From a virus (Duplodnaviria > Caudoviricetes), in the IMG/VR virus record IMGVR_UViG_2974556029_000001, positions 1 to 64,000 of that record: DNA of 64,000 nucleotides; one strand, written 5' to 3'. The notes under the pieces were generated by a model. That model was not told the DNA's origin, did no database searches, and worked only from the letters and a program-made list of their open reading frames with translations. The translations under genes and the position numbers were made by a program. Below, piece after piece: positions 1,970 through 9,564 of this stretch (its first letter is position 1; each line of letters starts with the position of its first letter).

Positions 1970-2094
1970 GTCACTTGCTCCTGTCAGGTAGGGAAGGCTA
2001 CCCTTCCCCTTGTGGCCCCGGCTGCTCCCCGATGGAGCGGCCCCGAACCAAAGCGACAACCAACTATGGGACAGCAGACCCAAAACCACAAGAA

Positions 2095-2160
2095 AATAGA
2101 GGGGGGGGGTACCCTGGGAGATCGAGTCCCTACCTCGCAAAATTTTAATCCCCCCCTGCC
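2095..2160. other. Candidate DNA packaging (pac/cos-like) region
   Basis: G run, GGTACC, AAAATTTT and a C run just upstream of the probable terS, where gene orientation switches. Confidence 0.3.
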
Positions 2161-2191
2161 CGTTGTGTCCGAGATCTGGGGTGAGGAGGAG

Positions 2192-2848
2192 GTGGGGCAA
2201 GCGGCTGATGGGGCGCCCGGTGATGATGGATTGGCGCGGGACGCGGTCCAGGGTGCCGGCGAAGCCGAAGTCCCAACGGGCAGGGCGGTTGTGGCGGCGC
2301 GGCTCGAGGTGGGGCCGAACGGGCTGATCACGCGGGGCAAGGCGGAGCGGCTGGTGCAGTTGATGGCCGAAGGCATGTCCGATACTGAGGCGAGGGGGCC
2401 GGCCGGGTTCAAGTCGGACGGGGCGGACACCAAGCAGCGGCGCGGGATTGTCGCGTCGCCCGTGTTTCAGGCGAGGCTGGCCATGTTGAGCGAGGAGCGC
2501 GAGAAGCTGCAGGACCGCGGGCCGCTGGGCGACGCGCTGTGGGCCGCGAAGCAAACCTTCAGGGCCGCGCAGCTCAAGGACGACCTGACGACCCAGATGC
2601 GGGCCGCGCAGCTGATCGCCGACATCTCCAAGAACATGCAGGGCGGCGGCGATGGCGAGCCTGGCGCGGATGGCCCGGCTGCACCTGGCGCGCCGGCGGG
2701 CCGCGGACCTGGTCGGCCGGCGAGCGAGCTGAAGTCGACCAAGGTCAACATCGAGAAGATCACGCGCGACCTGAAGGAGATCGGTCTCCAGCCGCGCACA
2801 ATTCCGGCCGGCGCTACCTTGCCGGCCAAGGAGGAGGATCCGTTATGA
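2192..2848 (+). CDS. terS: Probable terminase small subunit
   Basis: HTH-like RLVQLMAEGMSDTEA, then VFQARLAMLSEE and RAAQLIADI segments typical of TerS; GAGGAG RBS before GTG 2192 (start uncertain); first gene of the late-strand block. Confidence 0.55.
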   Translation: MGQAADGAPGDDGLARDAVQGAGEAEVPTGRAVVAARLEVGPNGLITRGKAERLVQLMAEGMSDTEARGPAGFKSDGADTKQRRGIVASPVFQARLAMLSEEREKLQDRGPLGDALWAAKQTFRAAQLKDDLTTQMRAAQLIADISKNMQGGGDGEPGADGPAAPGAPAGRGPGRPASELKSTKVNIEKITRDLKEIGLQPRTIPAGATLPAKEEDPL

Positions 2849-3174
2849 CGCCGGTCCGCGCGATCAGGGTTTCCGATCTCGACGAGACGAGCCGCCCGGG
2901 CGAGTTCATGTGGCTCAGCCAGAGCGGCCATCCCGAGGCCGGCTGGGTCATGCTCAACTTCATGTGCCCGTGCGGCTGCGGGCGCGAGGGCGGCGTCACG
3001 ATCGACACGCCGTTCACCAGCAAGCAGGGCGAGACGCCGCGCTGGTGGTGGGACGGTAACGAGGAGCGGCCCACGCTGAAGCCCAGCATCGACTGGCGCT
3101 TGCCCGACGGCCAGGGCGGCACCGTGTCGCACTGGCACGGCTATCTGACCGAGGGCATCTTCGCCCCATGTTGA
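2845..3174 (+). CDS. DUF6527-like Zn-binding protein
   Basis: CPCGCG...WWWDG...PTLKPSI...HWHGYLTEG motif; GGAGGAGG RBS; overlaps the TerS stop. Confidence 0.6.
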   Translation: MTPVRAIRVSDLDETSRPGEFMWLSQSGHPEAGWVMLNFMCPCGCGREGGVTIDTPFTSKQGETPRWWWDGNEERPTLKPSIDWRLPDGQGGTVSHWHGYLTEGIFAPC

Positions 3175-3602
3175 AACAGGCCGCCAAGCCCTGCTCCGAT
3201 CGCGTCTTGAACCTGGTCGGAGCCGGGCTGAGGACGGCTGTGCTCCTGGACATGGCGCACCGGCTCCGCGCCGGTCACGACGTCATCCTGGCGAGCCAGA
3301 CCCTGCTGCAGGTCAAGACCATGATCGCCGACCTGGGCCGCCACCTGGGCCGCGGCGTGATCGAAGGCGAGGTGGCGCGCTGGGGCAACAGCGGCCACGC
3401 CCACTTCTTCGCGCTCGAGCCGGATCACCCTCGAGTCGCCGACCTGCTCTGCATCACGGCGGCCTGGTGCGACGAGCTCTACGGGTTCAGGGCGACCCGG
3501 AACCAGATCGGCGCGGCGAACCACCTGGTCAGAAACCTGCGCAAGGTGGTGCACGGCACCAATCCCAAGATCATGATCACGGGCGACCCAGCCTGGCCTT
3601 GA
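3168..3602 (+). CDS. Truncated TerL-ATPase paralog 1 (144 aa)
   Basis: RWGNSGHAHFFALE...AAWCDE...NLRKVVHGTNPKIMITGDP aligns with this window's TerL EWPNGAVAHVFSAE...AAWIDE...NLRFALRLGNNPQRIYTMTP. Confidence 0.75.
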   Translation: MLKQAAKPCSDRVLNLVGAGLRTAVLLDMAHRLRAGHDVILASQTLLQVKTMIADLGRHLGRGVIEGEVARWGNSGHAHFFALEPDHPRVADLLCITAAWCDELYGFRATRNQIGAANHLVRNLRKVVHGTNPKIMITGDPAWP

Positions 3603-3665: not shown

Positions 3666-3947
3666 ATGCGCCTCAACTACATCCTGCTGAGTATCGTCAC
3701 CGCCGTCGCCGGCCTGGCCGCGTCCTTCGCAAGTTTCGCCGTCTCCATGTTCGAGCGCGTCAGTCGCGCCGTCGCTGTCGCCTTCCCCTACGCGCCGCGC
3801 GAGCCGCAGGTCCTGCCGTCGCTGATCTCGACCAAGATCTCGTTCGCCGGCGCCGCGCTGGCCCGGGTCCGCTCCTTCGCCTCGCGCCGCATGGCTCGGG
3901 TCAAGCCGGGCGAGGTCTACTCGATCCCGGTCGGCGCGCCGGCCTGA
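3666..3947 (+). CDS. Small protein with hydrophobic N-terminus
   Basis: GGGAGAG RBS, ATG 3666; signal- or TM-like N-terminus. Confidence 0.6.
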   Translation: MRLNYILLSIVTAVAGLAASFASFAVSMFERVSRAVAVAFPYAPREPQVLPSLISTKISFAGAALARVRSFASRRMARVKPGEVYSIPVGAPA

Positions 3948-3974: not shown

Positions 3975-4004
3975 GCCCCGCCGGGTCGCCCTGGCGGGGT
4001 TTTC
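3975..4004 (+). terminator. Rho-independent terminator, possibly bidirectional
   Basis: GCCCCGCCGGG-TCG-CCCTGGCGGGGT stem then TTTT, between convergent genes. Confidence 0.75.
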
Positions 4005-4235
4005 CTATGCCGGCACACCTTCGCCAAGGTCGATCAGCATCTTCATGCCCAGGGCGGACACCGCCTTCATGACCAGACCGACGTGGGCCGTGGCCTTGCC
4101 GTTCTCGAGATCGACGATGAACCGGCGCCCCGAACCGATCTTCTGGGCCAGGTCGGCCTGGCTCCAGCCCTGCGCGACGCGGGCGTCCCGGATCAGCTGC
4201 CCGAACCTCGACGTGGTCTCGACGTGGATTTCCAT
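4005..4235 (-). CDS. XRE-family HTH regulator (HipB/Y4mF-like), orphan
   Basis: FGQLIRDARVAQGWSQADLAQKIGSGRRFIVDLENGKATAHVGLVMKAVSALG; no adjacent HipA kinase. Confidence 0.85.
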   Translation of the reverse strand: MEIHVETTSRFGQLIRDARVAQGWSQADLAQKIGSGRRFIVDLENGKATAHVGLVMKAVSALGMKMLIDLGEGVPA

Positions 4236-4248
4236 GGCGCACCTCATT

Positions 4249-4417: not shown

Positions 4418-4960
4418 ATGAAGCTTTTCAGCGAAGGAGTCCGGGTCGAGATCGGCAAGACCTCGAACCAGACCAAGATTACCGATCTGGCCACGGGCGA
4501 GTTGGTCGAGAACCTGATCGGCATGGCGATGGAGATCGACGGCAACAACCGGACCGATCGCCCTGTGTTGATCCTGGTCATCGGCGATGTCGACATGACG
4601 GTCGAGAACGATCGGGTCGACTACCAGGTCGACGCCGGCCTGCTCCAGCGCATCGCCGAGTTCAACGGCTTCGACCTCGTGCCCAAGCCTGAGCCGGTGG
4701 CCGACGTCGAGGACGACGAGCCCGAGCTTGTGGCCGCCTCCGTCTCGACCGAGGTGATAAAGCCCGACCTGGTTGAGGAGCTCGAAACCATCCCGTCGCT
4801 CCGGAACGACGCGGTGCAGGTCTCCGCCGCGACGGAACACCAGGCCGGCCAGCCGGTGGGGCGGGGCACCAACATCCTCAAGGGCGGCATCGGCGGCCTG
4901 AGCGAGGATCTCGGCACGGACGAGATCCCGCGCAGCCTCGACACGTCGGATCCGGTCTGA
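4418..4960 (+). CDS. Hypothetical protein, acidic C-terminal half
   Basis: 180 aa, GGAG RBS, phage codon usage. Confidence 0.7.
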   Translation: MKLFSEGVRVEIGKTSNQTKITDLATGELVENLIGMAMEIDGNNRTDRPVLILVIGDVDMTVENDRVDYQVDAGLLQRIAEFNGFDLVPKPEPVADVEDDEPELVAASVSTEVIKPDLVEELETIPSLRNDAVQVSAATEHQAGQPVGRGTNILKGGIGGLSEDLGTDEIPRSLDTSDPV

Positions 4961-5328
4961 TGACGAGCTTCAACGCCGTCCTCGAGGAGGTGTGGGCCAG
5001 CCTTCTGTCTGGCACCCTCACCCATGTCGTCGTGCTCCACGGCGGCGAGTCGAACGTTCTGATCGACGCGATCAAGGCCAAGATCAGCGCCGAGCAGGTC
5101 AACGTCACCCTGAACCTGAACGACAAGGTCGTGACCTTCGTCAACGGCGAGAAGCTGCGGATCATCGCCGGCGACGCCTCGGAGAAGCTGCGCGGTCTCA
5201 TGCTCGATGGCCTCTGGCTGCTGAACCTGGACGCGCTTCCGGTCGACGTCTGGCGCACGGCGCGGGACCGCGGCGTGATGGCTCTGCGTCTGGGCCGCAT
5301 GGCTCGCTTCGAGTCCTCGTTCGACTAG
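4960..5328 (+). CDS. Truncated TerL-ATPase paralog 2 (122 aa, Walker B lost)
   Basis: TFVNGEKLRIIAGDASEKLRGLMLDGLWLLN...MALRLG aligns with TerL EWPNGAVAHVFSAEDPESVRGHEFDAAWIDE...FALRLG. Confidence 0.7.
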   Translation: MTSFNAVLEEVWASLLSGTLTHVVVLHGGESNVLIDAIKAKISAEQVNVTLNLNDKVVTFVNGEKLRIIAGDASEKLRGLMLDGLWLLNLDALPVDVWRTARDRGVMALRLGRMARFESSFD

Positions 5329-8068: not shown

Positions 8069-8082
8069 TTCTTGCATTGTCG

Positions 8083-8123
8083 GCGCCGCCGCCCTGGCCT
8101 GGGTCGGCGGCGCTTCTCGTTTC
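8083..8123 (+). terminator. Terminator/attenuator-like hairpin before the terL RBS
   Basis: GCGCCGCCG/CGGCGGCGC stem followed by TTCTCGTTTC. Confidence 0.45.
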
Positions 8124-8133
8124 AGGATGCCCC

Positions 8134-9564
8134 ATGGACCGAATGGAATCGCCCTTCTATCGCGCCGGGTTGACGCGAGAGTGGTGGACCTCGTTGCCTG
8201 AGGAGGAGCGCGCCAGGGTGCTGGCGTCGTGGACCCCTGTCGAAATCGAAGCCTTCGCCAAGGACTGGCGCGTCTGGGCCCGCGATCAGCAGCTTCCGCC
8301 GCCGGGCCAGTGGCGCTCCTGGATCCTGAAGTGCGGCCGCGGCTTCGGGAAGAACCGCAGCGCCGGCGAGCAGGTCAAGGACTGGGTCGAGAGCGGCCAG
8401 AAGGGGCGTATCTGCCTCCTGGGCCAGGGCGAGGCCGACGTGCGCGACATCATGGTCGAGGGCAAGTCGGGCCTGCTGGCCATCTCGAACAGCTGGTTCC
8501 GCCCTAAGTGGTCTCCGAGCCGCGGCGGCGGCCTGCTCGAATGGCCCAACGGCGCGGTGGCGCACGTCTTCTCGGCCGAGGATCCGGAGTCTGTCCGGGG
8601 GCACGAGTTCGACGCGGCCTGGATCGACGAGCCCATGTCCTACAAGGCCAAGAACCGGCAGGACATCATCTCCAACCTCCGCTTCGCCCTGCGCCTGGGC
8701 AACAACCCGCAGCGGATCTACACGATGACGCCGAAGCCGCACAAATGGCTTCGTGAGCTCCTGGCCACGGTCAATCCAGCCAAGGGCATCTACCTGACCG
8801 AGGGCTCCACCTACGACAACGTGGACAACCTGCCGCCGGCGTTCCTCGAGGACGTGACCGACGACTACGCCGGCACCAGGCTGGGCGAGCAGGAGCTGAG
8901 CGGCATCCTGCTGAACGACACCGAAGACGCCCTCTGGACCAGCATGCTTCTGGACCGGTGCCGGATCATGAAGGAGGCCTCGGAAGAGGAGATCATGAAT
9001 TTCGCCAAGTCGATGGAGCGCATCGTCGTGGCGGTCGACCCGAACATCTCGGCCACCGGCACGAGCCACGCCGCCGGCGTCACCGTCATTGGCCGCAAGG
9101 CGGGCAAGCGCTATCTCCTGGCCGACAAGACCAAGCGAGGCGGCCCAGACGTCTGGGGCAAGAACGCCGTGAACGCCTATGCGGACTGGAACGCCGACGA
9201 GATCGTGGCCGAGGTGAACCAGGGTGGCGACCTGGTCAAATCCGTGATCCAGCAGGTCGGTGTCTCGCTCGGGATTGACGTGCCGGTCCACAAGGTCCAT
9301 GCGACTCGAGGCAAGCAGAAACGCGCCGAGCCGGTGGCCGCGGCTTACGAGCAAGGTCGCTGCCTGCACGTCGGGCCGGCCTCGCGCTACACCAAGGTGG
9401 AGAGCCAGATGTGCGACCTGCACGAGGGTAACGACCAGACCGGCGAAGACTTCGACCGAAGCGACTCGGTGGTGTGGGGCATGACCCGTCTCGCCAAGGG
9501 CGAAGGGGGCGTGACCAGCGCCGGAGGTTCGGGCATCTTCACCTTCGACCAGATCGGAGCATAG
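8134..9564 (+). CDS. terL: Terminase large subunit
   Basis: Walker A-like CGRGFGKN, Walker B AAWIDE, coupling motif YTMTP, RNase H-like nuclease IVVAVDP...DRSDSVVW. Confidence 0.95.
   Translation: MDRMESPFYRAGLTREWWTSLPEEERARVLASWTPVEIEAFAKDWRVWARDQQLPPPGQWRSWILKCGRGFGKNRSAGEQVKDWVESGQKGRICLLGQGEADVRDIMVEGKSGLLAISNSWFRPKWSPSRGGGLLEWPNGAVAHVFSAEDPESVRGHEFDAAWIDEPMSYKAKNRQDIISNLRFALRLGNNPQRIYTMTPKPHKWLRELLATVNPAKGIYLTEGSTYDNVDNLPPAFLEDVTDDYAGTRLGEQELSGILLNDTEDALWTSMLLDRCRIMKEASEEEIMNFAKSMERIVVAVDPNISATGTSHAAGVTVIGRKAGKRYLLADKTKRGGPDVWGKNAVNAYADWNADEIVAEVNQGGDLVKSVIQQVGVSLGIDVPVHKVHATRGKQKRAEPVAAAYEQGRCLHVGPASRYTKVESQMCDLHEGNDQTGEDFDRSDSVVWGMTRLAKGEGGVTSAGGSGIFTFDQIGA

Follow-up and report, generated by a model that had tools for sequence, protein, structure and literature searches.

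The window analysed here comprises the first 64 kb (64,000 nt) of the 80,297-bp virus record IMGVR_UViG_2974556029_000001 (Caudoviricetes), which has direct terminal repeats and is rated complete; the GC content of this phage is ~66%. The window contains a functional gene for the large terminase, TerL, and, 4.5 kb upstream of it, an open reading frame (ORF) at 3168-3602, termed here mini-1, whose product resembles a part of the TerL ATPase core. The features of both genes on which the comparison is based are listed below.

3168-3602, plus strand: mini-1, 144 amino acids (aa), probable stand-alone derivative of the TerL ATPase core (N-subdomain I), assigned on the GC content at third codon positions (GC3), TerL homology and predicted fold
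3219-3236, plus strand: GAGLRT, mini-1 residues 18-23, putative degenerate P-loop remnant without GK[ST] and without the cis-arginine, as placed by MAFFT
3381-3395, plus strand: WGNSG, mini-1 residues 72-76, counterpart of the invariant WPNG strand of TerL
3432-3434, plus strand: R89 of mini-1, aligned to the invariant R174 of the TerL LRG motif, before Walker B (P74-26 R139-type position)
3459-3476, plus strand: Walker B of mini-1, AAWCDE, residues 98-103, with Asp-Glu retained
3540-3542, plus strand: R125 of mini-1, aligned to the invariant R206 of TerL LRLG, between helix alpha3 and strand beta4 (D6E R158-type position)
3555-3590, plus strand: GTNP...ITGDP, mini-1 residues 130-141, loop and strand of the C (coupling) motif (GNNP...YTMTP in TerL)
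8077-9564, plus strand: functional large terminase (TerL) with Terminase_6N and Terminase_6C domains, the paralog that mini-1 resembles
8335-8355, plus strand: Walker A of TerL
8614-8631, plus strand: Walker B of TerL
8719-8733, plus strand: C-motif of TerL

Mini-1 is, by its codon-position GC content, a genuine coding gene. The values (0.73/0.49/0.83) follow the pattern of the long genes of the phage, and at 3168-3602 this pattern matches the plus-strand frame and not the overlapping ORF on the minus strand, in agreement with the initial annotation of this DNA, which had described an intact ORF with phage codon usage. Two start codons are conceivable. The first, ATG at 3168, shares bases with the stop codon of the preceding DUF6527 gene (ATGTTGA), while an alternative start, GTG at 3240 (V25), lies five bases after a GAGGA box and gives a 120-aa form; the sole database record of the protein begins at the latter, and the 24 codons preceding V25 have a GC3 of 83%. 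On this choice depends whether the putative P-loop remnant, which is located ahead of V25, is part of the protein; the shorter form lacks it.

Homology of mini-1 to the large terminase

In a BLASTP comparison, residues 67-141 of mini-1 match residues 151-219 of the phage's own TerL (nt 8527-8733) with 31% identity and an E-value of 6e-6, that is, in the region around 8545-8740 where the initial annotation had aligned the surroundings of Walker B, and the three indels in the alignment are all in frame. About 70 of 120 TerL homologs (~70/120) align residues 72-141 or 98-141 of mini-1 at the equivalent segment. The best match among them is a distant TerL (36.6%) and not the phage's own, therefore mini-1 resembles the consensus of the family and not a recent copy of the resident terL. 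Comparison of mini-1 with a profile of 48 TerL sequences (hhalign) gave an E-value of 3.9e-4, with a probability of only 36%.

Scored against a hidden Markov model (HMM) of TerL, mini-1 obtained 12.4 bits, a value above the shuffled controls that had been proposed as a check of the alignment (maximum 8.9 bits in 20,000 shuffles). As a null of real DNA we used all 745 stop-to-stop ORFs of at least 60 aa in six frames of the whole genome, among which mini-1 (11.4 bits) ranks third, below TerL itself (766) and a stand-alone nuclease-like gene (72.8), and is followed by the ORF at 4960-5328 (6.8), all the rest scoring at most 3.8; in 733 ORFs from three related loci the background reached a maximum of 2.9 bits. 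The homology of the C-terminal half of mini-1 to TerL is well supported by these sequence comparisons. It goes undetected by curated family models: mini-1 matched no Pfam family at E <= 1, and so falls below the gathering score of Terminase_6N (PF03237), it matched no terminase PHROG and no NCBIfam model, and a sequence search of the PDB returned chance matches only (E > 0.2).

Predicted fold

The ESM Atlas single-sequence model of residues 25-144 has a predicted TM-score (pTM) of 0.80, and all ten structural neighbours listed for it, one row per Pfam family set drawn from the 30 nearest models, are TerL-type clusters, with TM-scores of 0.66-0.74 over 106-115 residues. By features, its neighbours are short clusters, and some of these carry Terminase_6N. 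This predicted model is evidence independent of our own alignments. An AlphaFold2 (AF2) model calculated with mini-1 aligned to TerL homologs reached a pLDDT of 72.5 and shows a helix at 110-122 and a strand at 134-138, but is not independent, its alignment being made of TerLs. Foldseek placed Sf6 gp2, D6E TerL, T4 gp17 and HK97 TerL in the top ranks for the AF2 model, and in structure comparison with mini-1 the TerL chains stood 2-4 Z units above helicases. According to these models, the product of mini-1 is the equivalent of N-subdomain I of the terminase ATPase, beginning shortly ahead of Walker A and ending shortly past the C-motif. Structure prediction, which had been suggested as a check, thus yields a fold like that of the TerL ATPase (ASCE/RecA-like).

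Elements retained and lost

Of the columns covered by residues 69-144 of mini-1, 20 are conserved to at least 90% in the TerL family, and mini-1 has the consensus residue at 16 of them; at the 49 other columns it does so only 7 times. This enrichment is partly inherent to profile alignment and is therefore suggestive, not proof of selection. The residues retained include W, N and G of the WPNG strand, AAWCDE, the G-NP loop, and T and P of the C-motif strand. The segment ITAAWCDE (residues 96-103) is aligned to FDAAWIDE of TerL and conforms to the Walker B pattern hhhhDE, and residues 98-103 were rightly described as an intact Walker B. Trans-acting arginine fingers have been demonstrated by mutagenesis for R139 in P74-26 and R158 in D6E (PMC5727402), and the alignment together with predicted secondary structure suggests that R89 and R125 of mini-1 occupy the equivalent positions.

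What is missing from mini-1 comprises the P-loop Lys, the cis P-loop Arg (Ala19 in mini-1), the N-terminal Q/adenine-binding segment, the lid and the nuclease. Both losses named in the initial annotation are borne out: there is no Walker A lysine, as GK[ST] occurs nowhere in the 144 residues, and there is no nuclease, as the protein covers only HMM positions ~60-200 of 513 and ends 3 residues past the C-motif position. Judged from its sequence, mini-1 cannot bind or hydrolyse ATP by itself, because the P-loop GK, the cis-Arg, the adenine segment and the lid are absent and in view of what is known of ASCE ATPases.

For the N-terminal half (residues 1-71), comparison with the TerL profile between Walker A and WPNG gave 0.1 bits, which 5122 of 20000 shuffles also reached. 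MAFFT puts G18 and G20 of mini-1 on two invariant glycines of the TerL P-loop, with a gap at GK, and the order of elements in the fold models follows that of TerL from the P-loop strand on; the AF2 pLDDT of the GAGLRT segment is ~51. The pairing of LNLVGAGLRT with ILKCGRGFGKN of TerL, proposed earlier, finds no support in these scores; the MAFFT placement and the collinear models make it plausible, no more. The earlier description of mini-1 as a catalytically dead mimic of TerL holds in part: homology, fold and the losses point to a TerL-derived core unfit as a normal ATPase, while the correspondence at Walker A did not stand up statistically.

Distribution of mini-1 and of TerL

Homologs of TerL number thousands, the nearest being 61-77% identical and located on contigs of 75-82 kb, therefore a group of related phages exists. 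Seven TerL homologs (P0023, P0024, P0051, P0053, P0057, P0070, P0072) are 820-860 aa long and contain LAGLIDADG_3 (PF14528), which suggests intein-bearing terL genes.

Mini-1 has no homolog among 15 billion proteins; searches of 5.8 billion clustered proteins, and of 1.8 billion representatives in an exhaustive reading, recovered the protein alone. A tblastn search of 50,697 deposited phage genomes gave no match at E <= 1, no homolog is present between terS and terL in three related phages, and searches of viral contigs for loci related by TerL or by the DUF6527 protein returned nothing. Several candidates were rejected. Two library matches (P0002, P0003) are long repeat proteins (RTX/HCBP and similar), the scores of which are sums over 5-6 repeated stretches and are spurious. 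A 144-aa gene upstream of terL in the relative L006 has a similar length but is a terS homolog unrelated to mini-1. A tblastn match in a Rhodovulum phage (L010:4043-4177) is out of frame with terL and disappears in the protein comparison, and short TerL-like proteins in a large database turned out to be frameshifted terL fragments and not a family of mini-terminases.

Gene neighbourhood and synteny

Four closely spaced genes in the same direction (2066-2848, 2845-3174, mini-1, 3666-3947) form a string, of which mini-1 is the third and in which no internal terminator was found. Its other members are:

2066-2848, plus strand: probable small terminase (terS), first gene of the string, conserved in the relatives L003, L005 and L006 (counterparts at L003:1667-2551, L005:2898-3515 and L006:4110-4544)
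2845-3174, plus strand: gene of the DUF6527 (BubE-like Ser/His peptidase) family (PF20137, E 2.5e-14; phrog_15183, E 2e-40)
3666-3947, plus strand: 93-aa protein with an N-terminal hydrophobic helix, last gene of the string

The product of the first gene has no match in Pfam, PHROG or NCBIfam and an ESM Atlas feature score of 0.95 to clusters containing Terminase_2, and it is probably TerS. DUF6527/BubE is a zinc-finger Ser-His peptidase of bacterial operons for ubiquitin-like conjugation (bioRxiv 10.1101/2024.11.21.623953). A terminator-like hairpin at 3988-4000 lies 3' of the gene for the 93-aa protein. Convergent with the string is a helix-turn-helix (HTH) gene at 4005-4247 on the minus strand, which scores 70.7 bits with TIGR03070 (Y4mF/HipB antitoxin-type; cut-off 71.65); no toxin partner was seen adjoining it. 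PADLOC and NCBIfam returned nothing for mini-1, the ORF at 4960-5328, the DUF6527 gene or the membrane protein. A Mu-type portal gene (by homology with L003), head genes and tail genes come after terL.

Synteny was derived from tblastx matches of at least 48 bits, the unfiltered map being swamped by high-GC noise. The closest relative, L003, has terS and the HTH gene but lacks the DUF6527, mini-1 and membrane genes, therefore these three occupy a variable slot. The gap between terS and terL in this phage group contains 5.5-7.5 kb of variable genes, and its heterogeneity is illustrated by the presence of a gene for a DnaG-type primase in the relative L006 (6469-8205). In two Mu-like Rhodobacterales phages, Thiobacimonas phage vB_ThpS-P1 and Rhodovulum phage vB_RhkS_P1, a DUF6527 homolog lies between terS and terL, with 1-2 tiny ORFs before terL (DUF6527 genes at L009:3498-3794 and L010:3483-3797). 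Mini-1 stands where terL would begin in this terS-DUF6527-terL order.

Other TerL-derived small genes in the genome

Two further genes of the same phage are related to parts of TerL.

4960-5328, plus strand: mini-2, 122 aa, a second and more degenerate derivative of the TerL ATPase core according to the TerL HMM
64884-65426 of the genome (L008:884-1426), minus strand, beyond the window: stand-alone gene of 181 aa similar to Terminase_6C (RNase H-like nuclease)

Mini-2 scores 8.4 bits with the TerL HMM (0 of 5000 shuffles), in an ungapped alignment of 60 residues to HMM positions 134-193, and ranks 4th of the 745 ORFs of the genome. The DE of Walker B is replaced by LN, the arginines of LRG and LRLG are retained, and the sequence is closer to TerL than to mini-1. 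The nuclease-like gene (72.8 bits with the TerL HMM) is 25% identical to the TerL nuclease domain (E 3e-14); its probable ortholog in L006 (4600-5559) is the N-terminus of a 319-aa gene directly after terS, which is 26% identical and has the same MF.Y..F start. Counting mini-1, this genome thus contains three small genes of TerL descent, each separate from the others.

Comparison with known systems

The closest counterpart of mini-1 is N-subdomain I of TerL itself (the phage's own TerL; D6E, 5OE8; Sf6 gp2, 4IDH; T4 gp17, 2O0H), with which it shares the homology from Walker B to the C-motif, the Walker B DE and both invariant arginines. It differs from TerL in its size (144 aa versus ~480), in the lack of the adenine segment, P-loop GK, cis-Arg, lid and nuclease, and in its divergence, as it lies under every curated HMM threshold and is ~31% identical, whereas TerL orthologs are far more alike.

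Truncated terminase copies are already known in other phages, and no sequence relative of mini-1 itself turned up in the searches above. Truncated terminase paralogs have been described beside terL in Rak2-like jumbo phages (CBB_274 of vB_PcaM_CBB) and in the Sinorhizobium phages phiM12 and phiN3 (PMC5259590). Like these, mini-1 is a second, incomplete terminase-domain gene in a phage with a complete terL; they, however, are conserved across a phage group and adjoin terL, whereas mini-1 is a singleton located 4.5 kb upstream of terL, directly after terS and DUF6527. T4 vs.8 and Ksap2 (Bas60_220) are small phage proteins that resemble the terminase ATPase domain and activate Avs2 (PMC13601566, PMC11564622). 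Mini-1 is similarly small and lineage-restricted, with a core like that of the TerL ATPase, but vs.8 retains both Walker A and Walker B and mini-1 lacks Walker A. The function that small TerL-like proteins have for the phage was called an open question by Evans et al., with anti-defence as one possibility (PMC13601566). Sequence relatedness of mini-1 to the families of CBB_274, T4 vs.8 and Ksap2 was not detected in the 50,697 phage genomes and 1.8 billion representatives. Pseudogene fragments of terL (P0127-P0135) are, like mini-1, short and contain a part of Terminase_6N. They are ~50% identical to TerL, those with an N-terminus have GRGAGKT in it, and they end in frameshift tails, whereas mini-1 is far more diverged, has clean bounds at domain edges and has no frameshift tail.

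Possible origin and role of mini-1

The reading that we prefer, and to which we give about even chances with the identity of the protein included, is that mini-1 is a non-catalytic, TerL-derived ATPase core serving as a binding-only pseudo-subunit at the interface of the terminase ring. It would represent a truncated and fast-diverged version of N-subdomain I, the RecA-like core that extends from the P-loop strand as far as the C-motif strand in large terminases of the Terminase_6 type. Its position points, as the most likely origin, to a partial duplication or mosaic recombination that involved terL at an old terS-DUF6527-terL junction; mini-1 would then be the remnant of a terL copy left there as ~5 kb came between terS and the working terL. 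The protein may act by binding only: as a pseudo-subunit it would attach to TerL, monomeric or in a ring, at the face that bears the ATP site, and once docked it could modulate or cap the assembly and firing of the terminase motor, be it that of its own phage or that of a competitor.

A number of points weigh against this reading. The N-terminal half of mini-1 has no significant sequence similarity to TerL. The AF2 model of the single sequence was unusable (pLDDT 40.7) and, as said above, the better AF2 model depends on an alignment of TerLs, just as the enrichment at invariant columns depends in part on the profile alignment. The equivalence of the trans-arginines is based on the alignment and on position in the secondary structure, not on a superposed model of the ring. 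The two Mu-like phages that carry the synteny have a different TerL family, therefore their gene order is a positional argument only. Frames stay open easily at 66% GC (745 ORFs of at least 60 aa in 80 kb). Finally, mini-1 is a singleton, so purifying selection on it is not measurable, and an ORF of a single genome may be young or dispensable.

Several of these points bear on the idea, rather unlikely in our opinion, that mini-1 is an evolutionary relic, i.e. a leftover 5' piece of a displaced terL that is open, perhaps translated, and functionless. Such an origin would agree with the absence of mini-1 from the closest relatives (those with TerL 61-77% identical), in which the terS-terL gap contains other genes, with its position where terL would begin after terS-DUF6527, with the presence of a second, more degraded copy 1.4 kb away, and with the fact that open frames are cheap in DNA of 66% GC. 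However, at ~31% identity neither the frame nor the codon-position GC pattern would be expected to survive in a neutral fragment, and mini-1 keeps both, with its indels in frame. The concentration of identities at family-invariant residues, the confident fold obtained by the language model from the single sequence (pTM 0.80) and the tight coupling of the start of mini-1 to the upstream gene likewise argue against a mere relic.

At the other extreme, mini-1, mini-2 and the nuclease-like gene might form a maintained regulatory or warfare kit, in which the two ATP-blind cores, as pseudo-subunits that donate arginine fingers, would switch a terminase motor on or off in trans. We see a small chance of this; if true, the kit could time the packaging of the phage itself or sabotage the motor of a co-infecting phage. 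A three-part TerL-derived kit of such kind has, to our knowledge, not been described.

Of the three roles put forward in the initial annotation (sensor decoy, packaging regulator, poison), that of the decoy appears the least likely in our analysis. Under this quite improbable scenario, mini-1 would be an immune decoy or anti-defence protein, a mimic of the TerL ATPase surface that occupies or misleads host sensors of terminase (Avs1-3, Upx) without activating them. Such a role would suit a gene that belongs to a variable accessory region and has as its neighbour a DUF6527/BubE-type peptidase, of a family linked to ubiquitin-like conjugation in bacteria, and anti-defence was raised by Evans et al. 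as a possible role of small TerL-like proteins (PMC13601566). It is disfavoured because the small TerL-like proteins characterised so far, Ksap2 and T4 vs.8, trigger Avs2, and because EcAvs2 reads and contacts ATP bound in the active site of the terminase (PMC11564622, PMC13601566), which mini-1 cannot be expected to hold. Moreover, Avs sensors fire on binding, so that a binder would be expected to trigger them, and PADLOC gave no match.

It is very improbable that mini-1 is not derived from TerL at all but is a generic RecA-like/ASCE mini-domain with a convergent or chance resemblance. The lack of Pfam, PHROG and NCBIfam matches and the hhalign probability of only 36% would be compatible with this. 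The matches, however, fall on motifs specific to the TerL family (W-N-G, AAW-DE, LR-G-NP, T-P) and extend beyond hhhhDE, the HMM score was reached neither in 20,000 shuffles nor in the background of ~1,470 real ORFs, all ten listed structural neighbours of the independent ESM model are TerL-type clusters, and the TerL chains stand 2-4 Z units above helicases. That mini-1 is an active minimal ATPase with GAGLRT as an unorthodox P-loop is hardly credible, for although the Walker B DE is intact and an ungapped reading puts Arg-Thr at the place of GK[ST], the protein has no Lys, cis P-loop Arg, adenine-binding segment or lid, GAGLRT is modelled with low confidence and may be untranslated if the start is V25, and Lys-to-Arg changes in Walker A abolish hydrolysis in P-loop NTPases.

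Taken alone, mini-1 is modest evidence, being a singleton on which selection is not measurable. Truncated or small look-alikes of the terminase ATPase nevertheless recur in unrelated phages (Rak2-like jumbo phages, T4 vs.8, Ksap2). In mini-1 the parts required for holding ATP are lost, yet Walker B and both candidate trans-arginines are kept, and the arginines are likewise kept in mini-2. The position of mini-1 may in addition record how the terS-terL module was pulled apart in this phage, and the retention of the arginines leads to the testable idea that small TerL-like proteins may act as pseudo-subunits at the interface of the terminase ring.

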